Positions 7,008 to 51,148 of a DNA stretch of 64,000 nt are shown piece after piece (position 1 is the stretch's first letter; each line of letters begins with the position of its first letter). The notes beneath the pieces were generated by a model that was given only the letters and a program-made list of their open reading frames with translations, was not told where the DNA came from and did not search any database. The stretch covers positions 7,997 to 71,996 of the forward strand of contig CANQYB010000001.1 in assembly GCA_947627975.1 (NCBI GenBank), given 5' to 3'. The stretch comes from an uncultured Bacilli bacterium. GTDB taxonomy: Bacteria > Bacillota_I > Bacilli_A > RF39 > UBA660. Position numbers and translations under genes: made by a program.

Positions 7008-8192
7008 TTATTTTAATTTGTCAAATACTTTAATACGCATCATATCAAATTTATGAACTTCTACATCACAAGGTATTTTTACTATCATTTGAGGATGATT
7101 AGCAGCTTTTAATTTTTTGTCATCTTCATCCCATATTTTTTTAATTTTTAAATCAAAAGTTTCTGTTTTTGGTCCAAAAATTTGAACTATATCACCTATT
7201 TTAAAGAAATTTCTTTGTTCTAATGTAATAATCTTTTTTTTATTATCATAATTTTTTATTAATCCTAAAAAATCTTGATTTGAAAGTTCGTCTCTATCTT
7301 GATAATATTGTTCAGAATAATTTGGTAATTTATCAAAAAATTGAGGTGTACTTTCTCTATTTGCACATCTATTTAAAATATTTATGGCATAATTAATATA
7401 TTCATCATTTAAAGAATTATTTACAACTTTTTTCATAATATTTTTATATATTAATGTTACAGTTGCAATGTAATAAATAGAACGCATTCTCCCTTCAATT
7501 TTAAAAGATTCAACATTCATATTCATCAATTCTTTAATATACCTTACCATATTTAAATCTTTTGGCATTATAGAAAATTTATGCTTTTTATTAATATCAA
7601 ATAGCCAACGGCACACTTGGGCACAGCCCCCTCTATTAGAATCTCTTAAAGTACAGTAATTTGATAAAACGCATTGCCCTGAATATGATACGCACATAGC
7701 CCCATGAATAAATACTTCAATAGACATGCCAGTAGATACTAATGATTCAATTGTTTTTTTTGAACACTCTCTTGCAGCAACAATTCTTTTAACTCCTAAT
7801 TTTTTCCAAAATAAAGCATGATCTTTATTTGTTACACTCATTTGTGTTGATAAACACAAATCTAAATTTAAATGATTTTCCTTTACTAACTTTAAAACGA
7901 CAATATCACTAAATATTATTCCATCAACTTTAATTTTTTCCAAAAATTGTAAATATTTTTTAAGTCCCTTTAAATTTTCTTCATGAAAAACTATATTAAC
8001 AGTGATATAAATTTTTTTAGAATAACTATGAACATATTTAGTAGCATATTCTATTTCTTCTAATGTAAAATTAGTTGCATTGGCTCTTAATGAAAATTCT
8101 TTTCCTCCTAAATAAACTGCATCTGCTCCATATAATATAGCAATTTTTAATTTTTCTAAAGATCCTGCAGGAACTAGTAATTCATAATTCAC
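7008..8192 (-). CDS. peptidase U32 family protein (YrrO/TrhP-like, tRNA U34 hydroxylation)
   Basis: 394 aa with a U32 N-terminal TIM-barrel 'LLVPAGSLEKLKIAILYGADAVYLGG' and a Cys-rich 'GAMCVSYSGQCVLSNYCTLRDSNRGGCAQVCRW' segment. Lies in the conserved mltG-trmR-U32-U32 cluster. Confidence 0.85.
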   Translation of the reverse strand: MNYELLVPAGSLEKLKIAILYGADAVYLGGKEFSLRANATNFTLEEIEYATKYVHSYSKKIYITVNIVFHEENLKGLKKYLQFLEKIKVDGIIFSDIVVLKLVKENHLNLDLCLSTQMSVTNKDHALFWKKLGVKRIVAARECSKKTIESLVSTGMSIEVFIHGAMCVSYSGQCVLSNYCTLRDSNRGGCAQVCRWLFDINKKHKFSIMPKDLNMVRYIKELMNMNVESFKIEGRMRSIYYIATVTLIYKNIMKKVVNNSLNDEYINYAINILNRCANRESTPQFFDKLPNYSEQYYQDRDELSNQDFLGLIKNYDNKKKIITLEQRNFFKIGDIVQIFGPKTETFDLKIKKIWDEDDKKLKAANHPQMIVKIPCDVEVHKFDMMRIKVFDKLK

Positions 8193-13714: not shown

Positions 13715-13756
13715 TTTTGTCAAAAAAAATACAAATTTTAAAATTTGTATTTTTTT
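13715..13756 (-). terminator. rho-independent terminator after LamG paralog 1
   Basis: Palindrome aaatacaaatttt/aaaatttgtattt followed by a U-run on the minus-strand transcript. Confidence 0.5.
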
Positions 13757-14924
13757 ATTGTAAAGCATTATAATTTTTTAATACTTCAGCCTCAGATAAT
13801 GCTCTACTATATACTTTTACATTGGATATTATTCCATTAAAATATTCATTGCTACACTTAGATCCATCAGGATTACATCCTAAAGCTAAATTAGTTTTAT
13901 TCCCTGGTTTTCCAATTTTTGTTAATGTGTCCGAAACGTGAATAGTTGTAGCTTGAACATTTCCATCTATATATAATTTAATATCCTTTCCATCATATGT
14001 TGTTACTACATGATATTTAGTTTCTGTAGCTAAATTTGATGCACTATTAAAACTACGATATGATCCTACATAAATAAACGGACCAACTTGTTGCTTATAA
14101 AATCTTATAGAATATCCTCCTGATTGCAAATTAGCAATAGGACACATATAAGTTGATGAAAAATTCTTAATAATAATTTCTGTTTCCAAAGTTACATAAT
14201 CATAATTAAGTTCACCTATTATTACACCATCATTTGTTCCATCAAATGAAAGTCCTTCACTTGTTTTTGTTGCACCTTCTACTTTTCCATTATGTCTATT
14301 TCCTGATTTGTCTATTAATGTATCACTTGCATTTTCTAAACTTCTTTTATTATATAATAGTTCTAATCCTTCTCTTACTATACTTTTGTCTTTTTCTTCA
14401 TAGCTTCCACTTTCTTTTATTCCTATTGTTCCCTCGATTGTTAATCCTTGATTATAATCTTGATTTTCTTTTGTTTCTTTTAATTGAAAAGTTATTTTAT
14501 ATGTTTGAATTTCTTTACTTTTTATTGTTTGTCCTTTTATTATTCCTAAATTTTCTCCTGCTTCTGGTACTTTACTTTCAGGAAGGCCTTTACATCCACT
14601 TGTACATGTTATTGTGTATACTAACTCATCTTTTAATATTTCATTATCAAGTTTTAACCACACTAAATCATATGTCACATCTACACTTCCAGTATTTTCT
14701 ACTGTTACTTCTTTTGTCTTACTCCATCCAGGACTTATTTCTGTAGCGTTAAATGAAGGTGTTTTATCTGAAAAACTTAAAGATAATGTTCCTGTTTTAG
14801 TTACTACATTTTCTGAATTTGTATTTCCATTTATTGTTGCACTAAAGTAGGCATAAGAACTTCCGACTATTAAAATACTTATTAAACACATTGTAATTAT
14901 TAATATTATATATTTTTTCTTCAT
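13755..14924 (-). CDS. secreted protein with SipW-cognate-type signal peptide (TasA/camelysin-like N-terminus) and C-terminal LamG/concanavalin-like domain; paralog 1
   Basis: N-terminus 'MKKKYIILIITMCLISILIVGSSYAYFSA' fits the G(S/T)-aromatic-A-x-F-S motif of SipW-cognate signal peptides. The C-terminus 'NGIISNVKVYSRALSEAEVLKNYNAL' is LamG-like. The first roughly 230 aa are near-identical to the 62309..63499 product. Confidence 0.7.
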   Translation of the reverse strand: MKKKYIILIITMCLISILIVGSSYAYFSATINGNTNSENVVTKTGTLSLSFSDKTPSFNATEISPGWSKTKEVTVENTGSVDVTYDLVWLKLDNEILKDELVYTITCTSGCKGLPESKVPEAGENLGIIKGQTIKSKEIQTYKITFQLKETKENQDYNQGLTIEGTIGIKESGSYEEKDKSIVREGLELLYNKRSLENASDTLIDKSGNRHNGKVEGATKTSEGLSFDGTNDGVIIGELNYDYVTLETEIIIKNFSSTYMCPIANLQSGGYSIRFYKQQVGPFIYVGSYRSFNSASNLATETKYHVVTTYDGKDIKLYIDGNVQATTIHVSDTLTKIGKPGNKTNLALGCNPDGSKCSNEYFNGIISNVKVYSRALSEAEVLKNYNALQ

Positions 14925-38416: not shown

Positions 38417-39502
38417 TTGAAAAATATCACCAAACGTATAAAATTTGTATTTATAATTACATTATTATTTTTAATTATAATTATTTTAAAAGTCTTTTAC
38501 ATTCAAGTTATTGACTATAAAAAGCTAAATAAATTATCTGCAGATCTTTGGGGCAGAAATTTACCTATTGCCGCTGAAAGAGGAAAAATACTTGATAGAA
38601 ATGGTAAAATTTTAGCAGATAATATAACTACTACTTCTCTTGTACTAATTCCTAATCAAATAAAAAATAAAGAAAAGGTTGCTAAAGATTTGGCTAAGAT
38701 TTTAAATGTATCTTTAAAGGAAATGGAAAAACATGTATACAAAAAGACCTCAATTGAAAGAGTTCATCCAGAAGGAAGAAAATTAAGTTATGAAATTGCT
38801 AAAAAAATTGATCAACTTGCATATGATGGAGTTTATCTTGTAAAAGAATCTAAAAGATACTATCCTTATAAAGAATTACTTGCACATACTTTAGGCTATG
38901 TTGGAATTGATAATCAGGGATTATCTGGTCTTGAATTAGAATATGATGATTATTTAACTGGAAAAGATGGCGCAATAAAATACTTTTCAGATGGAAAAGG
39001 AAAAAAATTGGCATTATCTGAAGTTTACGTTCAACCTCAAAATGGAATTGATGTTAATTTAACAATAGATTTAGATATTCAATTATCCATTGAAAGAGAA
39101 CTAAATAATGTTGTAGAAAAATATGATCCAGAACATGCTTTAATAATTGCAATGGATCCTAATAATGGAGAAATTTTAGGAATGGGTTCAAGGCCATCTT
39201 TTGATCCAAATAATTATCAAAATTATTCTAATGAAGTTATTAACCGTAATTTGCCAATATTTATGACTTATGAACCTGGATCAACTTTTAAAATAATAAC
39301 TTTAACTGCTGCTCTTGAAGAAAAAAAAGTTAATTTATTTAAAGATCGTTATACAGATAGTGGTGGTGTTACTATAAATGGTGCAAGAATAAAATGCTGG
39401 AAAGCTGGAGGACATGGTGATCAAAGTTATTTAGAAGTAGTTGAAAATTCATGTAATCTTGGAGTAAATACAGAAACATATTTGAATTTAAAGAATTACT
39501 AG
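38417..39502 (+). CDS. spoVD: SpoVD-like class B PBP, 5' segment of a gene split by a 15.5-kb insertion
   Basis: TTG start with RBS AGAGAGG. The ORF encodes the dimerisation domain plus the start of the transpeptidase, including STFK, and ends '...LEVVENSCN' followed by 15 element-derived codons and a stop. It is collinear with B. subtilis SpoVD up to the SCN of the SXN motif. The host portion ends at 39458. Confidence 0.8.
   Translation: MKNITKRIKFVFIITLLFLIIIILKVFYIQVIDYKKLNKLSADLWGRNLPIAAERGKILDRNGKILADNITTTSLVLIPNQIKNKEKVAKDLAKILNVSLKEMEKHVYKKTSIERVHPEGRKLSYEIAKKIDQLAYDGVYLVKESKRYYPYKELLAHTLGYVGIDNQGLSGLELEYDDYLTGKDGAIKYFSDGKGKKLALSEVYVQPQNGIDVNLTIDLDIQLSIERELNNVVEKYDPEHALIIAMDPNNGEILGMGSRPSFDPNNYQNYSNEVINRNLPIFMTYEPGSTFKIITLTAALEEKKVNLFKDRYTDSGGVTINGARIKCWKAGGHGDQSYLEVVENSCNLGVNTETYLNLKNY
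39455..39458. other. attL core (AATC) at left element/host junction
   Basis: The same tetranucleotide is present at 54954-54957. The host reading frame is collinear across the two copies. Confidence 0.55.
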
Positions 39503-39600: not shown

Positions 39601-40383
39601 ATGCCAAAAGAACATATTATAATTTCTAATTTTAATATAGAAGATAATAATATTAAAAAGAAACAAATGCATTTTGATACAAGTACTTATGAAAAGTTAA
39701 TTTTTAATAAAAAAACAACTGCTATTAATTTATTCAATAGTTTAGATAAAAAAATTTTAGGTATAGGAAAAAATATATCAAGAAATTATTTAATTAAAAA
39801 TGTTGTCTATAAATTAAAAAGGAAGATTGTTGAGGTACAAATCAATCAATCTAATTTATTAGTATCATTATATAAAGAAGCAAAAAGATTTGATAATAAT
39901 AATAAATTATTATTAAGAAAAGGATATGAAAACACTAGTTTATGTTATTTTATACAAATTGAAAGTGATGAAGATATTAACTACTGTATTAATCTAATAC
40001 AAAAAATGTATAATTATCTTATCATTTCTAAAATTGATTATATTGATATACTTTATAAAAAATTAGTATTCAATATCAAATTAATAGATAACTCTATAAC
40101 TTTTCATAATACTAACAAAGGATTAATATTTAAAGGAAAAAGAAATTTTACAATTTTAATTAAGCAAAAAAATAATGTATATATTAGACTTCTTAATGTA
40201 GATGACAAAAACAATTTATTAGGAATAATAAAAAGAACAACATATGAGCCATTATGCAAATATTTTAAAGTTTACAAAGATGAAGATATAAATTTTATAA
40301 TTCCTTATATTAAAAATAGTTTCGAATTATCAAAAATTAATCCACTAGATTTAAAACATGATTTTATAAAATTATATTACTAA
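39601..40383 (+). CDS. hypothetical protein at left end of element (frame is open back to the attL junction at 39457)
   Basis: 260-aa ORF with a weak RBS. The same frame has no stop for 47 codons upstream, right back to the junction. Confidence 0.45.
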   Translation: MPKEHIIISNFNIEDNNIKKKQMHFDTSTYEKLIFNKKTTAINLFNSLDKKILGIGKNISRNYLIKNVVYKLKRKIVEVQINQSNLLVSLYKEAKRFDNNNKLLLRKGYENTSLCYFIQIESDEDINYCINLIQKMYNYLIISKIDYIDILYKKLVFNIKLIDNSITFHNTNKGLIFKGKRNFTILIKQKNNVYIRLLNVDDKNNLLGIIKRTTYEPLCKYFKVYKDEDINFIIPYIKNSFELSKINPLDLKHDFIKLYY

Positions 40384-40465: not shown

Positions 40466-41530
40466 ATGAAAATTGAAAGTGATTTTATTACTGGTAAAAA
40501 TAAAGTTAATTTTACCAATTCACTAAATGCTCCTTTACTATATTTAAAGCTAAGTGTAAATTCTGAAACTATTATTCCTGATACTAACGATTTAATAATT
40601 TATGTTGATAATGATGAAGATGGCCTTAACAGAAAAACATATGCATATACTTTAAATAATAAGCTACAATTAAATGACCAATTTATTATTGAAAGTAAAA
40701 TTTTAAATAATAATTTAAATATGACGGCTTATATTAAAAACGAAGAAAAATTAGAATATATCGATTATGAACCAATAAATACTTTTGATGGAAATAATTA
40801 TTTATCAACTAATTATGAAAATATAGAAATCGAACTAATATATCCAGAAAATAATGATTTAAGTAAAAGATATCTATTAAATTCTATATACAATGAAAGT
40901 GAAAGTATAAATGAAGCAGATAATAATTTCAATGCTTTTACTAAAGATGAAAATGGCATTAATTTAGATGTTAATAATTTAAATGTTGGATGTATTACAA
41001 ATTCAAATAATAATTTTAGTGTTGATACTGATGGAAATATTTTAGCAAATAGTATAACATTAAAAAATGGTGTTAATTTAAATTATGAAGACTTATTTGA
41101 TAAGATATATCCTGTTGGTTCTATTTATATTTCAGTAAATAATATAAATCCTAGTACTATTTTTACAGGAACTTGGGAAGAATTTGCTCGTGGACGAACT
41201 TTAGTTGGAGTTGATGAATCACAAAATGAATTTAACGAAGTTTTGAAAACTGGTGGTAATAAATTATTACAATCTCACATTCATACTGGAACTACTAATG
41301 TTACAGGAAGCCATCAACATACTGGAAATACATTAGAAGTTCAAAAGAAAACTTCAAGTTCTAGTGATTGTGCCAGAAATATTTCTTCATCATATGATCA
41401 TGTTGGTGTTACAATAACTAATCCTGCAGGAGATCACTCTCATACATTTACTACTGAAAGTGCTGGTGCAGGTGATTCAGGTAACTTACAACCATATATA
41501 ACTTGTTATATTTGGAAGAGAATATCATAA
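40466..41530 (+). CDS. phage tail-collar (tail fibre) domain protein
   Basis: 'YPVGSIYISVNNINPSTIFTGTWEEFARGRTLVGVD...LLQSHIHTGTT...GSHQHTG...GDHSHTF' follows the tail-collar pattern P.G.I...P...G.W....GR...G followed by a histidine-rich repeat. RBS GAGGTGA. Confidence 0.65.
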   Translation: MKIESDFITGKNKVNFTNSLNAPLLYLKLSVNSETIIPDTNDLIIYVDNDEDGLNRKTYAYTLNNKLQLNDQFIIESKILNNNLNMTAYIKNEEKLEYIDYEPINTFDGNNYLSTNYENIEIELIYPENNDLSKRYLLNSIYNESESINEADNNFNAFTKDENGINLDVNNLNVGCITNSNNNFSVDTDGNILANSITLKNGVNLNYEDLFDKIYPVGSIYISVNNINPSTIFTGTWEEFARGRTLVGVDESQNEFNEVLKTGGNKLLQSHIHTGTTNVTGSHQHTGNTLEVQKKTSSSSDCARNISSSYDHVGVTITNPAGDHSHTFTTESAGAGDSGNLQPYITCYIWKRIS

Positions 41531-41614
41531 AAAGATATTCTTTTTTCTTTTTTTAATGACTTTGGCACTTACTAACATATTTATTTGAACATATTATGAA
41601 AATGGTGATACAGT

Positions 41615-41941
41615 TTGATAAAATTTTATATAAATATTAAACAAGAGTTAAATATTCTAAAAGAAAGAAAAAAATTATTAGATTTTGAAAAAGATATAAT
41701 AGATAAGTTAATTATTAAAAAAGAAGATAGTTTAAATATAATAGATAATCATTTAAAAGAATTAAAAGGAATTGAAAATAAATTATACTATCAAATAGTA
41801 GTTCTCGGAAAAAGTGTTACAAAAGCTGTCGATAAAGTTGCATTTGACGAATATAAAGATGTATCGACAATTTGGAAGAACTACTACCCTAATGTGAAAA
41901 AAAAATTAAAAGAATTAGAAACTCTAGCAAATAACAAGTAA
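41615..41941 (+). CDS. hypothetical coiled-coil protein
   Basis: 108-aa ORF with a TTG start and GGTGA RBS. Lys/Glu-rich helical. Confidence 0.4.
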   Translation: MIKFYINIKQELNILKERKKLLDFEKDIIDKLIIKKEDSLNIIDNHLKELKGIENKLYYQIVVLGKSVTKAVDKVAFDEYKDVSTIWKNYYPNVKKKLKELETLANNK

Positions 41942-41971
41942 AATTTTCATATATTAAATTAGAGGTGAAAT

Positions 41972-44900
41972 ATGAAAGAATTAATAAATAAGCGAAAACT
42001 TCGTGAAAAGCATTTTTTAAAACCAAACGGTGAAATAATTGCATATACTTATGATTCAGATGTACACTATTTAAAAAATGGTCAATATGAAGACATAGAT
42101 AATACAATTATTAAGACATCTAATGGCTATGAAAATAAAAATAATTCCTTTAAAACTATTTTTAATGACAATAATTTATTAACATTAAAAAAAGATAATA
42201 ATTATTTAATTTTTAATTTAGATAATTTAACAAAAATTAATCCTATTAAAAAAGATACAAAAGAAATATTATTTGAAAATATTTCAAATAATATTAATAT
42301 TAGCTATAAACTTATAAATGATAAAATTAAAGAATCTATTATAATTAAAGATAAAAATTTTGATTTAGAAAAATTAATTTTTAAAATTGATACCAATTTA
42401 ACTTTAGAAAAAATTGATAAAAAAATTATTGCTAAAAATAATAATGAAACTATTTTTATAATTGAAAGTCCTTTTATGTATGATTCATCAGGAATATATA
42501 ATTATAATGTATTATATGATTTAAAAAAAGTTGAAAATAATTATATTATAGAATTAAGTTTAGATAAAGAATGGTTAAAAGAAAAAAACAGAAAATTCCC
42601 TATTATAATCGACCCAACAATCACTAATTATACAAATGAAAATAATGTTTATGATACTTATATTTATGAAAATGATTCAAATGTTAATAGAAATGATCAG
42701 GATATCTTAAAAGTTGGAATTGATAACAGTAATAAAATTTATCGAACTCTACTAAAATTTGATTTACCTACTATTGGAACTGGAAGTCAAATAACAGATG
42801 CACAAATCTGTTTAACAGGCTATCCTAAATTTCCCAATGCAGATATTAAAAATTATTCATACATAGATATACATGAAATGACAACTTCATGGGATGAAAA
42901 ATCAGCAAATTGGAATAATTTTCATGATAAATATAATAAAAGAATAGAAGCATATGGAAACTATACTGCTAGTCTTAATTTATTGGAAGAAGTTGTACCA
43001 AAATTTAATTATTATAACATTACTAATTTAGTTAAAAAATGGTATTCTGGTCATCCTAATAATGGTGTAATGTTAAAAGCACATTATGAAACTCGTGATA
43101 AAAATGATGATATTTGTTCTTATTTTTCTAAAAATAATCTTGTAACTAATTATAATCCTAAACCTTTACTTGCTATAACATATCGCAATCAAAATGGTTT
43201 AGAAGATTATTTGGCGTATAAGAAACAAGAATTTCAAAACGGTACTACATATTTAAATAATTATAATGGTAATTTGACAACATCATTTGATATTATAAAT
43301 ACTATTGGTGGAAAGATGCCTTTAAAAATTATAATGCATTACAATACAAATGATGTTGTTCTTAAAAATAATTATGGCTATGGTCTTGGATATAAATTAA
43401 ATTATCATGAAATGATTAAAGAAGTTAAAATCGAAGAAACAAATTATTTAGAGTATACTGATAGTGATGGTACAATTCATTATTTTTCTGAAAATGAAAA
43501 TATATATAAAGATGAAGACGGTTTAAGATTAGAAGCAGTTAAAGATAATAATATCTATACAATCACAGATATTGATGGTAATAAAAAAGAATTTACTTTA
43601 ATTAATAATATTTACTATTTAACAAAATTAATATCTACAGAAAATTTTACTAATTTAATTGAATATGATAATAATCGTATAGTTAAAATCACTGATGAAA
43701 ATGGAGATACTATCAATATTACTTATGAAGATGGTAAAATAACCTTTGCTAATAAATATAAGACAGTTATTATAAATTGCAATGCAAATGGCCAAATGAC
43801 TGAGCTTTTAAAAAATGGAACTACGACTTCATTTATATATAATAATTTAAATTTAATAGATAAAATAATAGATACAAACCAATTATCGATAAAATATGAA
43901 TATTATGATGCTATACCTTATCGTATGAAAAAAATTACAGAATATGGTTTAAATGATACCTTAGGTAAAGAAATAAATATTGAATATGGTTTTAATATTA
44001 CTTCCTTTAAAGATAATCTAGGTCATAAAAATACATATACTTTTAATAATATGGGTAATCCTATATCAGTTACTAATTTAGATATTAATGAAACTTTAAG
44101 AGATGGTTATGGACAAAATAATTTGTTCAGTGATTTTTATGGTTTAGAAAATAAATTACTTTCCAGTGAACAATTAAATAAAACTATTAAAAATTATATT
44201 AATAATTCAAGTTTTGAAACAAATGAAGAAATTTTTATGGGGCCAAATGTATCATTTACTAATGAAGAAGCAAGATCAGGATTAAGAAGTTTGAAATTTA
44301 CTGGAAGTAATTCATATAACATGATTAATATAGATGCGAAAGAATGTTATTATACTTTTAGTGGCTATTTTAAAGGTACTGGTAAAGCACAAATAAGTAT
44401 TCAATTACATGATAGTAATACTTATATGTATGAAACATTAAGTGATGAATTTTCTTTAACAGATGAATTTGAAAGACACGATGTAACATTCTATGTTTCA
44501 GAAGACTTTGCTAATTATGTAGATATTTATATTCATTTGGATGGTCTAGTATTATATCTTGATGATATTCAATTAGAAAAAGGTGAAGTTGCCAATCAAT
44601 ATAATTTAATTGATAATTCAGACTTTTCTGAAAATTTAACAGGTTGGGAAATTGAAACACAAGATGAAAATAATGAAGAGATAATTTTAAATAATGAAGA
44701 GATTATAGAACTAGAAAGTGGTTTAAAAGCACTAAAAGTAAATTTAGACCCATATATTTCTAAAACATTATCAAAAACTTTTAATATTTCTGGAAAAGCT
44801 GGAGATACATTTGTTTTATCATTTTGGTATAAAAACGCTTCATTAAATGAAACTATGTGGGCTTATCCAGCAAATTGTTTAGTTAGTTTTAATTTTCCAA

Positions 44901-47900
44901 ACTTACCAGAAGGAGAAGGATTTGACTGGACACCAATTGATACCCAACTTAATTTCAATGAAACAGAATGGCAATATTTTTCAGCAAGTTTTTCTGCAGA
45001 ATATGACTATGATAAAATCTTTTTCAACCTATTTATGTTAAGAAATGCTAATAATATTCAATTAACAAATATAACTTTATATAAAGATTTATCTAACTTT
45101 AATTATGATTATGATGAAAATGGTAATTTAATTGAAGCAACAGATTTAAATCAAAACAAATCTACATTTAACTATGACAAAAATAATCAATTAATTAAAG
45201 AAACTTATCAAAATGGAAATAATTTTTCATATGAATATGATAATATTAATCAAACAAAATTATTAAGTAGCATTTCTGGAACAGGTATTGCCAATGAAAT
45301 TAAATATGATAAATTTGAAAATCCAATTATTACTAAAATTAAATCAATTAAAACTAATGATACAATTGATGGAGATTATTATATAAGACTTAAAAGTTCA
45401 GAAAAGTATTTAGATGGTGATTATGAAAATAAAACTTTAAATTTCATAGAAAACACTTGTAGTCACGAAGTATGGACTATTAAAAAAGTTGATAATTATT
45501 ACACTATTAAATCATCATTATTAGACTTTTACTTAAATGTAACAAATAATATTGTTAGTCTTTCTAAAGAAAAAACAAAGTTTGATTTTTTTGAAAATGA
45601 CAATAAAAGTTATTTAATAAAAATTTATGATACTGATAATTATTTAAAATATGATAATGATAATAATAAAATAGTTATTTCTACAATTGAAGATGATTCA
45701 AATTTGGAATTCTATTTAGAAGATGCAAGTTACTCTATGTTTGTAGAAAATGAAGCTGAATATACTGAAGATGGAAAATTTATTAAATCAATAACTGATA
45801 CAAATTTTAATAAAATTTATTATGAAATAGATCCATCAAATGGTTTAACAAAAAAAATTACTGATCCAAATGGAGTAAGTACAAATTATACTTATAATGA
45901 AAAAGAACAAATAACTAACATTGAAATAAATAATGAAAAAATAGAATATTTTTATAATAATCAAAATCTTTTAAATAAAATTAAAAGTAATTCTATGGAA
46001 TATAATTTTGAATATAATGAATTTTTAAAACCAAAAACAATTAAAATTGGTGATAATATTACCTTGATTTCCAATGAATATGAAGATAGAAATGGTAATT
46101 TAATAAAAACAACTTATGGTAATGGGCATTCTGTATCATATGAATATGATGATTTAAATCGAATAAAATCAATGACAAAAGATAAAAAATATAATTTCAA
46201 ATATGATAATTTTAATAATATAGCAAAAATTGAATATAATATTCCATCATCAGATACTCCAATAAAATATCAATATGTTTATGATAAAAGTCAAAGGTTA
46301 GTAAAATATTCTCATAAGGATTTTAAATTAGAAAATACTTATGATATCAATGGTAATGTTATAAATAAAAAATATTACTTAAATAATACTAAACAAAACG
46401 AAGAATTTTCATATAATAAAGATGATGCTTTAATTTCATCACAATTTGATAACAATAATAATATTAATTATATATATGATCCGCTTGGTAGATTACAAGA
46501 GCAAAACATAAATAATCTATACAAAACAAAATATGAATATTTAACAAATGGAAAAAGGACTTCTCTACTAATAAATAAAATGACTAACAATAATAATTCT
46601 TATTCATACAAATATGATAAATTAGATAATATTACTCATATTTATTATAATGATAAATTAATATATAAATATTATTATGATGAATTTAATGAACTTATAA
46701 AAGAAGATGATTATATTCAAAATAAAACATTTAGATATATTTATGATAAAAATGGCAATATATTAAGTAAGAATACTTATGAACTTAAAACATTTAATTT
46801 ATTAGATAAAAAAGTATTTGAATATAATAATAAAAATTGGACAGACCAGCTAACCAAATACGAAAATGATATAATCTCTTATGATGAAATAGGAAACCCT
46901 ATTTCTATAGGAAATAATATTACAATAAATTGGCAAAATGGCCGTGAATTGAAAAAATATATTGATAAGGCAAATGATTTAATTATAGAATATAATTATG
47001 ATAAAGATGGAACTAGAACTTCTAAAAATGTTAATGGAAATGAAACTACTTATGTTACAGATGGCGAAACAATTATATTCGAAAAAAATAATAGTAATAT
47101 AATTTATTATCTTCGAGATAGTAATAACGATTTAATAGGACTAAAATATAATGATACAATTTATTATTATTTAAAAAATATTCAAAATGATATTATAGGT
47201 ATCTTAGATTCTAATTATAATCAGATAGCTGAATACACATACGATTCTTGGGGAAATATTATAAGTATTAAAGATAATAACAAAAACGAAATAACTGATG
47301 AAAACCATATAGCTTTAATTAATCCATTTAGATATCGTAGTTATTATTATGATAAAGAAACTAATTTATATTATCTTAATTTTAGGTATTATAATCCTAT
47401 TTGGTCAAGATTTATTAATGCCGATAATTATATAAGCACCGATAAAGATAATTTTATACCTAATTTGTATACATATGTTGCAAATAATCCAATAAACAAT
47501 CATGATTCAACAGGTTATTCTTTAAAAAAATTAATTAAATCTGTAGTTAAAAAAGTAAAGAAAGCTATAAAAACAGTAAAAAAACTTGCAAAAAAACTAA
47601 AAAAAGCTTTTACAGCTGAGGCAGAAGTTGGAATTGGATTAGGAAGCGGTACTATTGCTGGAACTTCTAAAACAGGTAAAACTTTTTCACAAACTATGGG
47701 AGTTGGTTATATTGATGGTGAAAAAAAATATTATACATCAACAGTTGGTTCCTTAGAAAGTGGTAAATTTAAAGATTTTACTTTTGGTGGACAATTTGAA
47801 GTTAGACATTACGATCATGGATATGAAAACCCTATGACACTGCCTTTTGAAATATGGAATGATCCTAATACAGTTAAAACATTTACTCTTTTCAATAAAT

Positions 47901-48022
47901 ATTATGAATATATAGGAAATCAATTAGACAATAGTAATGAAATTTTCATTGGACTTGGTTTTGAAGCATTTTGCTTAGGAGGAGTTAGATTAAAAATAGG
48001 TTTCAATATTAAATTAGATTAA
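41972..48022 (+). CDS. RHS/YD-repeat polymorphic toxin with N-terminal DNRLRE-like and CBM-like domains, RHS core and a C-terminal cationic variable domain; no signal peptide
   Basis: 2016 aa, RBS AGAGGTGA. It carries a DNRLRE-like segment 'ILKVGIDNSNKIYRTLLKFDLP...IHEMTTSWDEKSANWNN'. Many YD repeats are present, for example 'YDKNNQLIKETYQNGNNFSYEYD' and 'YIYDPLGRLQEQ'. The RHS core 'YYYDKETNLYYLNFRYYNPIWSRFINADNYI...NLYTYVANNPINNHDSTGY' precedes a 170-aa C-terminal domain beginning with a KK-rich amphipathic helix. Confidence 0.85.
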   Translation: MKELINKRKLREKHFLKPNGEIIAYTYDSDVHYLKNGQYEDIDNTIIKTSNGYENKNNSFKTIFNDNNLLTLKKDNNYLIFNLDNLTKINPIKKDTKEILFENISNNINISYKLINDKIKESIIIKDKNFDLEKLIFKIDTNLTLEKIDKKIIAKNNNETIFIIESPFMYDSSGIYNYNVLYDLKKVENNYIIELSLDKEWLKEKNRKFPIIIDPTITNYTNENNVYDTYIYENDSNVNRNDQDILKVGIDNSNKIYRTLLKFDLPTIGTGSQITDAQICLTGYPKFPNADIKNYSYIDIHEMTTSWDEKSANWNNFHDKYNKRIEAYGNYTASLNLLEEVVPKFNYYNITNLVKKWYSGHPNNGVMLKAHYETRDKNDDICSYFSKNNLVTNYNPKPLLAITYRNQNGLEDYLAYKKQEFQNGTTYLNNYNGNLTTSFDIINTIGGKMPLKIIMHYNTNDVVLKNNYGYGLGYKLNYHEMIKEVKIEETNYLEYTDSDGTIHYFSENENIYKDEDGLRLEAVKDNNIYTITDIDGNKKEFTLINNIYYLTKLISTENFTNLIEYDNNRIVKITDENGDTINITYEDGKITFANKYKTVIINCNANGQMTELLKNGTTTSFIYNNLNLIDKIIDTNQLSIKYEYYDAIPYRMKKITEYGLNDTLGKEINIEYGFNITSFKDNLGHKNTYTFNNMGNPISVTNLDINETLRDGYGQNNLFSDFYGLENKLLSSEQLNKTIKNYINNSSFETNEEIFMGPNVSFTNEEARSGLRSLKFTGSNSYNMINIDAKECYYTFSGYFKGTGKAQISIQLHDSNTYMYETLSDEFSLTDEFERHDVTFYVSEDFANYVDIYIHLDGLVLYLDDIQLEKGEVANQYNLIDNSDFSENLTGWEIETQDENNEEIILNNEEIIELESGLKALKVNLDPYISKTLSKTFNISGKAGDTFVLSFWYKNASLNETMWAYPANCLVSFNFPNLPEGEGFDWTPIDTQLNFNETEWQYFSASFSAEYDYDKIFFNLFMLRNANNIQLTNITLYKDLSNFNYDYDENGNLIEATDLNQNKSTFNYDKNNQLIKETYQNGNNFSYEYDNINQTKLLSSISGTGIANEIKYDKFENPIITKIKSIKTNDTIDGDYYIRLKSSEKYLDGDYENKTLNFIENTCSHEVWTIKKVDNYYTIKSSLLDFYLNVTNNIVSLSKEKTKFDFFENDNKSYLIKIYDTDNYLKYDNDNNKIVISTIEDDSNLEFYLEDASYSMFVENEAEYTEDGKFIKSITDTNFNKIYYEIDPSNGLTKKITDPNGVSTNYTYNEKEQITNIEINNEKIEYFYNNQNLLNKIKSNSMEYNFEYNEFLKPKTIKIGDNITLISNEYEDRNGNLIKTTYGNGHSVSYEYDDLNRIKSMTKDKKYNFKYDNFNNIAKIEYNIPSSDTPIKYQYVYDKSQRLVKYSHKDFKLENTYDINGNVINKKYYLNNTKQNEEFSYNKDDALISSQFDNNNNINYIYDPLGRLQEQNINNLYKTKYEYLTNGKRTSLLINKMTNNNNSYSYKYDKLDNITHIYYNDKLIYKYYYDEFNELIKEDDYIQNKTFRYIYDKNGNILSKNTYELKTFNLLDKKVFEYNNKNWTDQLTKYENDIISYDEIGNPISIGNNITINWQNGRELKKYIDKANDLIIEYNYDKDGTRTSKNVNGNETTYVTDGETIIFEKNNSNIIYYLRDSNNDLIGLKYNDTIYYYLKNIQNDIIGILDSNYNQIAEYTYDSWGNIISIKDNNKNEITDENHIALINPFRYRSYYYDKETNLYYLNFRYYNPIWSRFINADNYISTDKDNFIPNLYTYVANNPINNHDSTGYSLKKLIKSVVKKVKKAIKTVKKLAKKLKKAFTAEAEVGIGLGSGTIAGTSKTGKTFSQTMGVGYIDGEKKYYTSTVGSLESGKFKDFTFGGQFEVRHYDHGYENPMTLPFEIWNDPNTVKTFTLFNKYYEYIGNQLDNSNEIFIGLGFEAFCLGGVRLKIGFNIKLD

Positions 48023-48063
48023 TTTAATAATTAAAAAATAAGATACAAAATTTATTATATAAA

Positions 48064-48106
48064 AATGAAATATTTATCTGAAAAAGATATATTTCATTTT
48101 TTTTAA
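48064..48106 (+). terminator. rho-independent terminator after RHS gene (repeat copy 1)
   Basis: atgaaatatttatct-gaaaa-agatatatttcat hairpin followed by a T8 run. Near-identical to 51338..51380. Confidence 0.65.
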
Positions 48107-48257
48107 TTTAATTTAGAAAAATCAAACTGTTAAAATCATAAACATAAATTTTTTAATAATACAATTTGCCAATTCCAAAATAAACATATCTTTAATAAAT
48201 ATTAAAAAAAGCAAATTTATTATAGATACAGAAACTATTGTAGAAAAAATATAATAT

Positions 48258-48295
48258 TTGTGTTATAATTTTAATATAAAGGATGTATTTATATT
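48258..48295 (+). promoter_or_regulatory. extended -10 promoter (TGTTATAAT) plus conserved 20-bp RBS module aatataaaggatgtatttat, copy 1
   Basis: TGnTATAAT lies at 48261-48269. The 20-mer at 48273-48292 is repeated at 49146-49165. Confidence 0.5.
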
Positions 48296-49078
48296 ATGAA
48301 AAAGAAAAGAAAAATAAAAAAAGGTCTAAAAATATTTTTAATTACTATTATTATAACAATTATTGCATTTATTGGAATTGTTGTTTTACTAGCAATTATG
48401 GATTTAAAACAAGAAAGCAATTTAGAACAAGAAATTATAAATTATAATACTAAAGATTTAGCAAAGGATGATTTTACTGTGAAAATAAACACTAAAGGAG
48501 ATTATGCATATGTAGAAAAAGCAGTAAAAGAATATTATAAAAGTCTATCTGATAATGTCAAAACAATAAATTCCTATTTAAACAATGAAAAATTTTCTAA
48601 TCTTTTAACAGTAAATAATTTAGAAAGTGATAGACCTGATTTTACATTTAGTCATAATACTATTAAAATTACAAAAAACAATATTAATAAAGCAATTAAA
48701 AATATCGATAAATTATGTGATGAAAAAACTATTAAAAATTTACTTGATAAAGATAAGCTTGATGATGCTGATTATTATTATGATTTTTATTTGGAGTTAA
48801 TGTATACAAAAAATGATAAAAATAATTTTAAAAATTTAAAAAATAGAACGGATAATCTTGGAACACAATTAAATTCTTATTTAGATAAACTAGATGAAAC
48901 AATTAACTTTTTACAAAAAAATGATAAATCTGTTATATATGAACAAAACAATCAATCAATACTTTTTAAATCTCAAACATTATACATAGAATGGAAAAAA
49001 CAAATTGCAGAATTAGAAGAAATAGCAGAAAATATAGAAAAAGCCGAAAATACTGAAAATTCATCAAATGAAGCTTAA
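48296..49078 (+). CDS. membrane-anchored protein, candidate immunity protein 1
   Basis: 260 aa with a basic N-terminus plus one TM 'IFLITIIITIIAFIGIVVLLAIM', then a soluble Lys/Asn-rich domain. First gene downstream of the RHS toxin. Confidence 0.5.
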   Translation: MKKKRKIKKGLKIFLITIIITIIAFIGIVVLLAIMDLKQESNLEQEIINYNTKDLAKDDFTVKINTKGDYAYVEKAVKEYYKSLSDNVKTINSYLNNEKFSNLLTVNNLESDRPDFTFSHNTIKITKNNINKAIKNIDKLCDEKTIKNLLDKDKLDDADYYYDFYLELMYTKNDKNNFKNLKNRTDNLGTQLNSYLDKLDETINFLQKNDKSVIYEQNNQSILFKSQTLYIEWKKQIAELEEIAENIEKAENTENSSNEA

Positions 49079-49132
49079 ATATCATAGATTTATAAAATAA
49101 AAAAATATTTTTTTATAAAAAATAAAATATTT

Positions 49133-49163
49133 ACGGTATAATCTCAATATAAAGGATGTATTT
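49133..49163 (+). promoter_or_regulatory. promoter (GGTATAAT) plus conserved RBS module, copy 2
   Basis: Contains the same 20-mer as the region upstream of 48296. Confidence 0.45.
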
Positions 49164-50186
49164 ATGAAATTAATTAGAAAAATTAAAGATAAATTAATGG
49201 AAAATCCAAGAAAAACATTTATTATTTGCAATGTAATTTTAGCTTTATTAAATTATGTAACAATGAAAATGGATTTCTTGCTTGATTTTACCATTTTTAA
49301 TATTTTTATTTTCATATTTTATAGAATTCTATTAATATTCATAACAATTTTTAATTGTTACTATATTTATAAACATCCAAAAGATAAATTAATAATAATA
49401 ACATTTTTTGCGACAATTTTATCAATTCCTTTATTCCTAATTTGTTTTGAAACTTATATATTAATGATTTTGGCTTATATAATATTATTCTTTATCATTA
49501 ATAAGCCAGAAAATGTAAAACAAAGTGCTTTAAAAAATATTATATTTTTTATATGTAATATATCATTATTTTTATTATATTATATTACAAATGGAAAAGA
49601 TTTAATAATTGAGATATATCCTATAATTTTTATGGTTATAATAATATTAATAACAATTTTTAATTGCTATTATATTTATAAAAATCCTAAAAACAATCTT
49701 GTGGGAGCAATAGCCATTACTTCTATTGTTTTTTCATTCCCTTTAAGTGATGTTTTTCCTATTTTATATCTTCTAATAATTTTATCTTATTTACTATTTT
49801 TTATAATAAATAAAAAAATAGTTTTAATATTCATTGGAATAGTAGTCTTTATTTTGACATTAACTTTTTCTATAGAATCTTATATTTATAACCATAATAA
49901 TGAAGATTCAAACAAAGCAGTTGATATAGGTTTTTCACCTACTAAAAAGTATTATGGTTACTGTGAAAGTTATAAATTAGCAAATAATAAGTTAGAAAAC
50001 AAATTTTATTGGGGTAAGAAAAAACTACCAATAGATATTTTTAATACAATTGATCCACTTGAACAAAATATAAATATACCAACATGTAAAAAAGGTAAAA
50101 TAAAATGGATAACAGATGATGAAATAGAAGTAAATGGAAAAAAAATATCAATAAAAAATAAATGGGAAAAAAAATTCGAAAGTTAA
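49164..50186 (+). CDS. polytopic membrane protein with internal tandem duplication, candidate immunity protein 2
   Basis: 340 aa with 8 or more TM helices. The module 'ITIFNCYYIYK(H/N)PK(D/N)(K/N)L' occurs twice, about 100 aa apart. The nucleotide repeats are at 49342-49400 and 49652-49700. Confidence 0.5.
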   Translation: MKLIRKIKDKLMENPRKTFIICNVILALLNYVTMKMDFLLDFTIFNIFIFIFYRILLIFITIFNCYYIYKHPKDKLIIITFFATILSIPLFLICFETYILMILAYIILFFIINKPENVKQSALKNIIFFICNISLFLLYYITNGKDLIIEIYPIIFMVIIILITIFNCYYIYKNPKNNLVGAIAITSIVFSFPLSDVFPILYLLIILSYLLFFIINKKIVLIFIGIVVFILTLTFSIESYIYNHNNEDSNKAVDIGFSPTKKYYGYCESYKLANNKLENKFYWGKKKLPIDIFNTIDPLEQNINIPTCKKGKIKWITDDEIEVNGKKISIKNKWEKKFES

Positions 50187-50227
50187 AACATATTAAATTA
50201 ATAAAATTTTTTTGGAAGTGATTAGTA

Positions 50228-51148
50228 ATGATTTGTAAAAATTGTAAGAAAAATATTTCTCAAAAATCTGAGTTTTGTAAATATTGCGGAAATAAAATAA
50301 AAAAAGATAAATTATCTATTATATCTAAAATATTTATTTTCCCTTATATTTTTGTAATGTTTGTTATTTTTATTTTAATGTTTGTTTTTCCATTTGTAAA
50401 TCAAAATAATAATAGTTTAACTAAAGAAAAGTTTATTAATTACATGAAAAATAATAAGTGTAATTTAGTTAATGTTTTAGATAAAGAAAAATATGATGGT
50501 GTAGATTTTTATTATGTAACTAATAAACCTTGTCCTTATTTAGCCAGTTATACTATATTTGAAAATCCTAAAATGCAAAATGCCTTTTATAACAGTTTAG
50601 TAAATGATGTAAAAAATAATTCAAATACTAGAAATAGTAGAGAAATTAACATGTTAAATTATTTTGAAGTTTCAACATACGGGGAAAATTTTAAATTAGC
50701 AGCATCAAAAAATAATGAAGTATTTTATATTTCTGTTAAAAATCAAAATACAGATAAGGCTGTAAAAGTAGCCAAAGAATTTGGATTTTACTTTGAAGAA
50801 AGTCCTATTGGAAATAAATTAACATATATATTTATAATTATGTTAGTACTTATACTTATGATTAGTTGGTGGAAAATAAATATTAAAATGGGAAGAAAAG
50901 GTTGGATTTGTTTAATACCAATTTATAATATATTATGTTTATCTAAAGATGTTTTTGGCTCTTATAAATATTTTATAATATATTTAATACCCCTATTTAA
51001 TATTTATTCTATACATATAACATGTTATAATTTAGGAAAAGTATTCAAAAAAAGTGAAAACTATTTAATTGGTCTTGTATTATGTTTCCCATTATTTGTT
51101 TCAATGTTAGCATTTGATGATTCTAAATATATTATTGAAAAAAAGTAA
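50228..51148 (+). CDS. zinc-ribbon membrane protein, candidate immunity/accessory protein 3
   Basis: N-terminal 'CKNCKKNISQKSEFCKYCGNK' zinc ribbon, then a TM, a soluble domain and two C-terminal TM helices. Confidence 0.5.
   Translation: MICKNCKKNISQKSEFCKYCGNKIKKDKLSIISKIFIFPYIFVMFVIFILMFVFPFVNQNNNSLTKEKFINYMKNNKCNLVNVLDKEKYDGVDFYYVTNKPCPYLASYTIFENPKMQNAFYNSLVNDVKNNSNTRNSREINMLNYFEVSTYGENFKLAASKNNEVFYISVKNQNTDKAVKVAKEFGFYFEESPIGNKLTYIFIIMLVLILMISWWKINIKMGRKGWICLIPIYNILCLSKDVFGSYKYFIIYLIPLFNIYSIHITCYNLGKVFKKSENYLIGLVLCFPLFVSMLAFDDSKYIIEKK

Follow-up and report, generated by a model that had tools for sequence, protein, structure and literature searches.

A signal-peptide-less RHS polymorphic toxin with a phage fibre-like partner on a serine-recombinase element of an uncultured Bacilli bacterium

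The DNA analysed here is a stretch of 64,000 nucleotides (nt) from an uncultured Bacilli bacterium (positions 7,997 to 71,996 of contig CANQYB010000001.1, assembly GCA_947627975.1), which we call the window. It contains a cassette of genes that lie one after another on the forward strand: a gene for a homologue of phage tail fibres, a gene for a small coiled-coil protein, a gene for an RHS polymorphic toxin of 2016 amino acids (aa) and three genes for membrane proteins (Table 1). The cassette had been singled out in an original prediction made from the sequence letters, and every open reading frame (ORF) coordinate given there was confirmed. The toxin has a YD/RHS shell, an RHS core that precedes the C-terminal tip, and tips that vary among otherwise conserved relatives. 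It displays none of the features that mark the toxins of type VII secretion (T7SS; LXG/WXG) or type VI secretion (T6SS; PAAR/VgrG-type), the Sec-exported wall proteins (WapA/teneurin-like) or the TcB/TcC proteins.

The toxin has a mass of about 230 kDa, and its 6-kb ORF is intact and identical in sequence in four independent assemblies. Its N-terminal domain is confidently assigned to a beta-supersandwich type that occurs in polysaccharide lyases and glycoside hydrolases, and it is no known secretion domain. Pfam and NCBIfam bear out the DNRLRE-like domain, the modules resembling carbohydrate-binding modules (CBMs), the YD repeats and the RHS core that had been read from the sequence alone (RHS_repeat 8.8e-32; YD_repeat_2x 4.2e-18; RHS_core 9.2e-19), with CBM_4_9 and RicinB_lectin_2 exceeding their Pfam cut-offs when the protein is scanned as segments. 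The RHS core can be read directly from RFINAD... to the closing ...NNPINNHDSTG and has the Asp of its motif at both places where it is expected; a tip of 168 aa (aa 1849-2016) follows it immediately. The claim that the toxin has no signal peptide stands. The N-terminus is hydrophilic (maximum 12-residue hydropathy of 0.21 within the first 60 aa) and its start, MKEIEL..KR..REKHFL, is common to 120 of the 120 best homologues; an in-frame TGA (41966-41968) two codons before the ATG leaves no room for a signal peptide that begins at an upstream start, and the ATG has its own Shine-Dalgarno sequence, GAGGTG, before it. Pfam and NCBIfam scans of the whole protein detected no LXG, WXG, WXG100, PAAR or SpvB domain, no LPXTG, S-layer or other wall-anchor domain, and neither the N-terminal nor the beta-propeller domains of SpvB/TcB; no neighbouring gene is of TcA size.

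Table 1. Features of the cassette, its carrier element and the interrupted gene for a class B penicillin-binding protein (PBP), in window coordinates.
Feature	Position	Strand	Remarks
Class B PBP, N-terminal fragment, 361 aa	38417-39502	+	Pfam PBP_dimer; Pfam Transpeptidase positions 1-107
Left junction, attL core AATC	39455..39458		PBP frame breaks after ...ENSCN; direct sequence reading
DUF5655 protein, first gene of element	39601..40383	+	Pfam DUF5655 5.6e-08
Phage tail-fibre/receptor-binding homologue, 354 aa	40466..41530	+	Collar/Gp10_C knob
108-aa coiled-coil protein	41615..41941	+	Between fibre and toxin genes
RHS polymorphic toxin, 2016 aa	41972..48022	+	No signal peptide
Toxin, N-terminal domain, aa 1-225	41972..42646	+	Family-defining beta-supersandwich, galactose-mutarotase-like type
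Toxin, DNRLRE/CBM96 domain, aa 227-397	42650..43162	+	NCBIfam NF033679 6.3e-26; Pfam CBM96 35.2 bits; Disaggr_repeat 35.7 bits
Toxin, CBM_4_9, aa 741-856	44192..44539	+	Inserted in YD shell; Pfam 1.2e-07, 32.6 bits (cut-off 25.9)
Toxin, ricin-type beta-trefoil lectin-like insert, aa 1132-1192	45365..45547	+	Pfam RicinB_lectin_2 3.9e-07, 31.1 bits (cut-off 25.6)
Toxin, RHS-associated core, aa 1757-1848	47240..47515	+	TIGR03696 1.8e-16, 60.4 bits (cut-off 32.5)
Tip, Lys-rich amphipathic leader helix	47516..47602	+	14 Lys/Arg (K/R) in first 40 residues
Tip, toxin domain proper, ~138 aa	47600..48013	+	Gly-rich, all-beta; eight predicted long amphipathic strands; no Pfam family
AT-rich hairpin followed by U8, terminator-like	48061..48109	+	dG -12.3 kcal/mol, z -3.47; 0/200 shuffles as stable
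Membrane protein 1	48296..49078	+	One N-terminal transmembrane segment and 225-aa ectodomain
Membrane protein 2	49164..50186	+	At least 6 predicted transmembrane segments; internally duplicated
Membrane protein 3	50228..51148	+	Zinc ribbon, transmembrane segment, ectodomain, DUF5684 membrane domain; at least 3 predicted transmembrane segments
VirD4/CD1115-family coupling protein	51423..52928	+	N-terminally truncated; TTG start
82-aa ORF	52973-53221	+	No family match; directly upstream of serine recombinase
Large serine recombinase, right end of element	53261..54982	+	Pfam Resolvase, Recombinase, Zn_ribbon_recom
Right junction, attR core AATC	54954..54957		PBP frame resumes at 54958, PGFVNLGLKLG...; direct reading
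Class B PBP, remainder	54958-55808		Pfam Transpeptidase positions 255-298; PASTA in 55419-55808

The toxin belongs to a large family. Homologue searches returned 632 proteins at E<=1e-5, and the best 120 of these, one fragment of 1424 aa aside, are 1936-2141 aa long and 40-55% identical to the query over 92-100% of its length. When species-representative genomes were scanned, with a single genome for each species, at least 493 loci came to light. Almost all of these are in uncultured low-G+C gut Bacilli of human and animal origin, under labels such as Bacilli, 'Tenericutes', Mycoplasma sp. CAG:776, Clostridium sp. CAG:1000 and Ca. Onthocola; judging from contig names, several genomes of this group hold more than one locus. 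Coverage of the query ends at 92-95% in most homologues, where swappable tips of 155-215 aa begin after the RHS core. These include Ntox44, AHH, Tox-REase-7, Hydrolase_2 (a cell-wall hydrolase), Tox-WTIP and the beta domain of the window copy; such different tips on a conserved body define a polymorphic toxin family. At two loci (L039, 15042-16546; L040, 16878-19500) arrays of orphan RHS C-terminal fragments, each with its own small gene, lie downstream of the main toxin, and arrays of this kind commonly mark loci where tips are replaced by recombination.

The tip of the window copy had been described as unique, a description that cannot be kept. Exhaustive phmmer searching found it in 28 representative clusters (best 6.6e-25), always directly after an RHS core, and a local hidden Markov model (HMM) built from 18 sequences matches some 20 of the 120 nearest homologues of full length, or roughly one in six. 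A word-indexed search (no match with the single sequence, one protein with a profile) was too insensitive for so short and divergent a domain, and a metagenome scan with a five-sequence alignment yielded two short loci, both informative. The match to a known domain that had been named as a point to check came to little, with no Pfam family and only the weak signals of OMP_b-brl (0.0098, in 2 of the 18 members) and the stem region of the pore-forming toxin Epx4 (E 0.062). In the tip alignment conservation falls on Gly, Phe, Asn-Pro and Lys, and no Asp, His, Cys or Ser is invariant; an ADP-ribosyltransferase or other enzyme was rejected for want of such catalytic-type residues. In the AlphaFold2 model (pLDDT 73.5, pTM 0.65) the tip forms eight long strands of marked amphipathicity: one face of the strands is hydrophobic, and the other is made of Gly, polar and charged residues. 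Gly makes up 13.8% of the domain. The same tip also occurs in P0129, a predicted protein of 243 aa in which it is joined to the first 88 residues of a serine recombinase and is identical to that of P0131; this protein may be a chimera of assembly or gene calling, or it may record a rearrangement that a recombinase brought about at a toxin locus.

The leader helix, together with the Gly-rich beta region behind it, had been taken to mark the payload as membrane-active or pore-forming rather than as a nuclease, and as regards the helix our comparison leads elsewhere. The boundary of the core is clear in 130 relatives, of which 47 have a K/R-rich leader and 57 a hydrophobic leader that resembles a transmembrane (TM) segment, while most of the remaining 30 or so look like weaker amphipathic helices. 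Lys-rich leaders precede Ntox44, Tox-WTIP and the Hydrolase_2 cell-wall hydrolase as well, and the nucleases AHH and REase-7 have TM-like leaders before them. Because leaders of these types stand before nearly all tips of the family, with such different payloads, the cationic helix says nothing specific about the tip of the window copy; instead it may be a general device for engaging or crossing membranes. The proposal of a membrane-active payload nevertheless remains plausible on other grounds, namely the predicted all-beta amphipathic fold, the lack of catalytic-type residues and the membrane proteins that are the candidates for immunity.

The fibre gene is the most constant neighbour of the toxin. 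Its product matches Pfam Gp10_C over the full profile (2e-29, positions 1-139/139) and PHROG tail protein and tail fiber families down to 2.9e-24, and tblastn matched 420 phage records; it is 30-37% identical to proteins of the tail and of receptor binding in phages whose hosts are the Gram-positive genera Blautia, Faecalimonas, Streptococcus and Lactococcus. For counts of neighbouring genes the ORFs of 96-98 fetched loci were compared with the seed neighbours, and only non-redundant complete loci were then retained. In 64 of 65 such loci a fibre homologue lies at most 700 nt upstream of the toxin, the two genes often almost overlapping; the tail-collar protein, which had been named a candidate receptor-binding or delivery component, is a real partner at the level of gene order. 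The upstream fibre of the closest relative with context (L009, 8976-9560; 53% identity) keeps the conserved N-terminal segment NCITNPNNKFGIDSEGNIHANSISL, but its C-terminal domain is another one, to which Gp10_C gives no match; the fibre therefore seems to consist of a constant part next to the toxin and a swappable receptor-binding part. In 17 of the 65 loci a homologue of the 108-aa protein is encoded between fibre and toxin. The protein has the conserved motif GIE.KLYYEIVV.G.NVTKAVDKVA...STIWKNYYPKVK, which can be read as helix-turn-helix-like, and an adaptor, a chaperone or a regulator are candidate roles; Pfam, NCBIfam and PHROG contain no match to the protein. A relationship to sigma region 4, with which it aligns in the same register in hhalign, is unsupported at a probability of 0.13. 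The 108-aa ORF and the RHS gene share a reading frame, but two stops in that frame, a TAA (41939-41941) and the TGA described above, make them separate genes and not a disrupted fusion.

Lysis genes and a regulatory gene accompany the pair across the family. In the 43 loci with at least 4 kb of sequence on both sides, a holin gene lies within 5 kb on the same strand in 30, a peptidoglycan hydrolase gene is present in 24, the two occur together in 23 and at least 72% have one or both; a small sigma factor gene is present in 17 (40%). These figures come from seed-limited searches and are lower bounds, and they stay so, since iterated HMMs of the neighbouring genes hardly raised them. The neighbours match Pfam Phage_holin_4_1, Peptidase_M23 with LysM, CW_7 with LysM, and NlpC/P60 with PG_binding_1. 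One holin (L011) matches TIGR01593, 'toxin secretion/phage lysis holin', at 1.5e-34, and some holins of the family are of the TcdE family, while one sigma factor (L005) matches the sigma70-ECF superfamily at 3.9e-14. The well-flanked modules sit between housekeeping genes and contain no capsid, tail tube, sheath or baseplate genes. In one locus with a tip of the same family as that of the window (L051, 4007-14382) the holin, hydrolase, fibre, toxin, immunity-like and sigma genes are all together and adjoin a gene for a large serine recombinase of 524 aa; the complete module can apparently travel on recombinase elements. The original prediction had found the export route not obvious. That is true of the window; in the family as a whole the co-located holin, hydrolase and small sigma genes offer a candidate one.

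The genes that follow the toxin in relatives point to the nature of immunity. In seven independent loci with the same tip (L015, L043, L070, L096, L097, L098 and L099) a gene for an RDD-family protein of 124-148 aa begins 2-16 nt after the toxin stop, and more divergent tips in L040, L050, L083 and L093 are followed by a two-TM protein. Every immunity candidate in the relatives is thus a membrane protein, as would fit a payload that acts on membranes, and the tip and the RDD protein appear to form a new, unannotated toxin-immunity family. The genes in the window are different: the toxin stop is separated from membrane protein 1 by 273 nt, as against the 2-16 nt that precede the RDD gene elsewhere. 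Membrane protein 1 is 59% identical at the aa level and 75% at the nt level to the product of a gene that follows an RHS toxin with another tip (L039), and the similarity in the DNA begins 35 nt before the start codon, so the tip was apparently exchanged upstream of a gene that was already there. It is probably not a tip-specific immunity protein. Membrane protein 2 is an orphan, present only in copies of this element and matched by no Pfam, NCBIfam or PHROG family. Membrane protein 3 (Pfam DUF5684, 1.2e-10) has an ectodomain that is 33.6% identical (9e-20) to the product of the ORF directly after the same-family tip in L051, a resemblance that makes it the best candidate for immunity in the window. 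The assertion that each of the three genes has a promoter of its own can be followed only part of the way: promoter-like sites number 185 against 167.6 +/- 14.4 in shuffled sequence, a consensus scan being uninformative at 22% G+C, and an extended -10 match does lie just before the gene for membrane protein 1. The hairpin after the toxin stop forms a terminator-like end to the fibre-RHS transcription unit.

The cassette is the cargo of a 15.5-kb element, as follows from the reading frame of a class B PBP gene that breaks at the left junction and resumes after the right one. The AATC core is present at both junctions and the halves join in frame as ...ENSCN|PGF..., the expected junction after loss of the element being ...TCATGTAATCCCGGTTTTGTAAAT.... 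The earlier description of the toxin as cargo on an element that interrupts a sporulation gene is borne out to the extent that a PBP gene is split and that the organism forms spores. The latter follows from genes in the window for YqfD and for a sigma factor of the sporulation type. The interrupted gene has a single PASTA domain and lies upstream of mraY and ftsW/spoVE, and it is plausible but unproven that it is spoVD rather than the gene of a division PBP. The carrier is a decayed serine-recombinase mobile element with a remnant of conjugation inside it, the coupling protein, which matches NCBIfam conju_CD1115 (2.3e-65, profile positions 109-431/442; 221 bits, below the cut-off of 250) and Pfam T4SS-DNA_transf (positions 128-438/468) and lacks its first 110-130 or so residues. 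From its position the 82-aa ORF could be a recombination directionality factor; an unrelated ORF of 73 aa occupies the same place before the recombinase gene in L051. The DUF5655 gene at the left end lies outside the conserved toxin module and was seen only in copies of the same element. The arrangement recalls skin in sigK, SPbeta in spsM and gin in gerE (PMC4191935, PMC5595907), with which it shares a large serine recombinase at one end, a split coding frame whose halves join in frame, and a spore-forming host. It differs from them in its target, a SpoVD-like class B PBP, and sporulation-specificity and developmental excision are no more than candidate features here. No case of an intervening element in spoVD emerged from a literature search.

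We consider it probable, with reservations that are set out below, that the cassette is one copy of a large two-component RHS toxin family of spore-forming gut Bacilli in which the toxin is paired with a phage receptor-binding fibre, and we infer the following mechanism. The dedicated small sigma factor would turn the module on. The toxin would leave the cell by way of the phage-type holin and peptidoglycan hydrolase, either through lysis of a subpopulation or through holin-dependent export, and the co-location of holin, hydrolase and sigma genes across the family points to the kind of holin/endolysin release seen for Tc and Clostridioides difficile toxins. The fibre would bind the toxin and steer it to a surface receptor on target bacteria, the CBM and lectin modules contributing to the targeting. 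After autoproteolysis, which is predicted to occur at the RHS core, the leader helix would take the tip into or across the target membrane, and the tip of the window copy, modelled as a Gly-rich amphipathic beta domain of eight strands, would then damage that membrane. The 15.5-kb element would have captured the module and kept the fibre, the 108-aa gene, the toxin and the three membrane-protein genes. As no lysis or sigma genes accompany this copy, its release must rely on genes elsewhere or on lysis of the mother cell or the whole cell; the strain would probably protect itself with membrane protein 3 or with the product of a gene elsewhere.

Such a mode of release has precedents. The Tc (ABC) toxin complexes, as in YenTc of Yersinia entomophaga, are released by a type 10 secretion system (PMC10847048, PMC10847046). 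They share with the family described here a large RHS/YD cocoon, an encapsulated hypervariable tip, the lack of a signal peptide, a separate receptor-binding component and co-encoded phage-type holin and endolysin genes, which in Tc release the toxin from a subpopulation. In contrast to Tc, no TcA pentamer and no SpvB/TcB beta-propeller domains were detected here, the partner is a small receptor-binding fibre of phage type, Gram-positive gut commensals serve as hosts, a spanin is absent, the window copy has no lysis genes, and the tips and the immunity-like genes downstream indicate bacterial and not insect targets. The PaLoc of C. difficile, with its TcdR sigma factor, TcdE holin, TcdL endolysin remnant and signal-less TcdA and TcdB, and UviA/UviB with bacteriocin BCN5 in C. 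perfringens, likewise bring together in one island a small sigma factor, a holin of the TIGR01593 family, a peptidoglycan hydrolase and a giant signal-less toxin, although PaLoc encodes glucosyltransferases and not an RHS polymorphic toxin and has neither the fibre partner nor the immunity genes. Membrane-depolarising tips are found in Rhs effectors of the Tse5/RhsP1 type, and T7SS toxins of the TspA type have polytopic membrane immunity proteins. These resemble the window copy in its suggested membrane-targeting payload and integral membrane immunity, but their tips are helical or of the glycine-zipper type and are delivered by T6SS or T7SS, whereas the tip described here is predicted to be all-beta and has no sequence match or significant fold match. 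The YD shell, RHS core, polymorphic tip and, as a candidate feature of the window copy, downstream immunity gene are also found in WapA of Bacillus subtilis, the DNRLRE-containing WapA of Streptococcus suis and teneurin-like proteins (PMC12704120, PMC13018210); those proteins have signal peptides and wall-binding domains, unlike the 120 members compared here, none of which has a signal peptide. What the family has in their place is an N-terminal beta-sandwich, hydrophilic and conserved, and the fibre as partner.

Several observations weigh against the explanation that we favour. The window copy has no holin, hydrolase or sigma gene either in the element or in the whole of the 64 kb, and in this it resembles 10 of the 43 well-flanked loci, which have none of the three. 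Where holin and hydrolase genes do stand beside a phage-fibre gene they could be mere prophage debris, as in L101 (see below). The binding of fibre to toxin is deduced from gene adjacency only, and the way in which a 230-kDa protein would cross the Gram-positive wall on the target side is left unexplained. Foldseek returned nothing significant for the tip model, the confidence of that model is moderate, and its best structural matches are soluble barrels as often as membrane barrels. The suggestion that the three membrane-protein genes encode immunity is also weakened, even though all are membrane proteins and the third resembles the gene after the tip in L051: the gene directly downstream of the toxin is held in common with a locus that has a different tip (L039), and an HMM search of all forward frames between 47900 and 51300 found no RDD gene or remnant. 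The same search revealed neither a degraded RDD sequence in the 273-nt gap nor one hidden in membrane protein 2.

The absence of the accessory genes is what gives force to the possibility that the window copy is decaying cargo, which has lost its sigma, holin, hydrolase and RDD genes and persists as a harmless toxin that is never released. The truncated VirD4 gene and the tip that was apparently swapped in upstream of an older membrane-protein gene would agree with this. On the other side stand the intact toxin ORF, unchanged across the assemblies, with its good ribosome-binding site and terminator, and the presence of more than one locus in several genomes of the group, by which accessory genes could act in trans; we judge decay to be improbable. 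We think it similarly improbable that the toxin acts by contact at the cell surface in the manner of WapA and the teneurins, exported by a non-classical route and held to the wall by its CBM and lectin modules, with the fibre a separate adhesin or irrelevant. Gram-positive RHS proteins such as WapA do act by contact, and the toxin has several carbohydrate-binding-like modules. There are, moreover, teneurin-like proteins that have no signal peptide, whose delivery mechanism, in the words of a 2026 paper on bacterial members of the group, 'remains to be elucidated' (PMC13018210). Yet the scans revealed neither a signal peptide nor a wall anchor, a fibre gene that is nearly universal and often comes close to overlapping the toxin gene suggests that the two function together, and the holin and hydrolase genes are left without explanation unless they are the export route, in which case this alternative merges with the explanation that we favour.

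That the fibre and the RHS protein are instead parts of a virion, in a phage tail or a tail-like particle (for example as a tail-tip toxin), with holin and endolysin as ordinary phage lysis genes, is a still weaker contender and in our estimation unlikely. The fibre is a genuine homologue of phage receptor-binding proteins, and in an IMG/VR contig (L101) the module is preceded by a tail protein of 652 aa (phrog_372), two small ORFs and an endolysin gene, with similar arrangements in L065 and L071. This order suggests that the module descends from a prophage late region. Among 2.9 million viral contigs, however, there are just 3 true members of the family, as against the hundreds of loci in genomes, and 50,697 phage records contain none beyond one weak match to the DNRLRE region; the housekeeping surroundings of the well-flanked loci, devoid of structural phage genes, and the immunity-like genes and orphan tip arrays (L039, L040) are typical of chromosomal polymorphic toxin loci. 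An anti-phage defence or abortive-infection module, as the original prediction had entertained, is very hard to credit. The cassette does lie on a mobile element, the first gene of which has a weak PADLOC match to the candidate defence protein PDC-S18 (6.8e-07), but PADLOC matches neither the fibre, the 108-aa protein, the membrane proteins nor the other genes of the element, and polymorphic tips, immunity-like genes and orphan tip arrays form the architecture of interbacterial toxins.

RHS polymorphic toxins are known, and so is the holin-dependent release of toxins. What is apparently undescribed is a Gram-positive family of signal-less RHS proteins in which a dedicated receptor-binding fibre of phage type occurs in combination with lysis genes, with a small sigma factor and with a leader common to all tips. 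No published account of it came to light in our literature search, an absence that is not proof of novelty, and the combination is missing from the list of trafficking modes of Zhang et al. 2012. A bolder reading, which we offer as a possibility that is on the whole doubtful, is that these loci represent a new trafficking class of Gram-positive polymorphic toxins, a self-contained module derived from a prophage late region. A small sigma factor would belong to this module, as would the fibre that binds the receptor, the RHS cocoon without a signal, a gene for immunity, and the pair of holin and endolysin. The producer would sacrifice or permeabilise some of its cells and so free a fibre-guided toxin particle, the payload of which would be carried into or across the target membrane by the universal leader helix; the tip of the window copy would be a small and hitherto unrecognised beta-barrel membrane toxin, neutralised in relatives by RDD proteins. 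Given that its carrier interrupts a SpoVD-like gene and that it has no lysis genes of its own, its release might be tied to sporulation by lysis of the mother cell. For the export and delivery of giant signal-less RHS toxins in Gram-positive bacteria the favoured explanation provides a concrete hypothesis, with the fibre as targeting subunit and the holin and endolysin as the exit. Given the number of loci in gut Bacilli, the family may be a major weapon in gut competition. Both the beta-rich tip with its RDD immunity partner and the family-wide leader helix are unannotated by Pfam, and a toxin cassette whose carrier element interrupts a SpoVD-like gene connects antagonism between bacteria with the rearrangement of sporulation genes.

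The other ORFs of the window that we sampled are housekeeping genes. Two paralogues lie on the minus strand 48 kb apart (13755-14924 and 62309-63499), and each encodes a camelysin-like Peptidase_M73 N-terminus together with a Laminin_G_3 domain.

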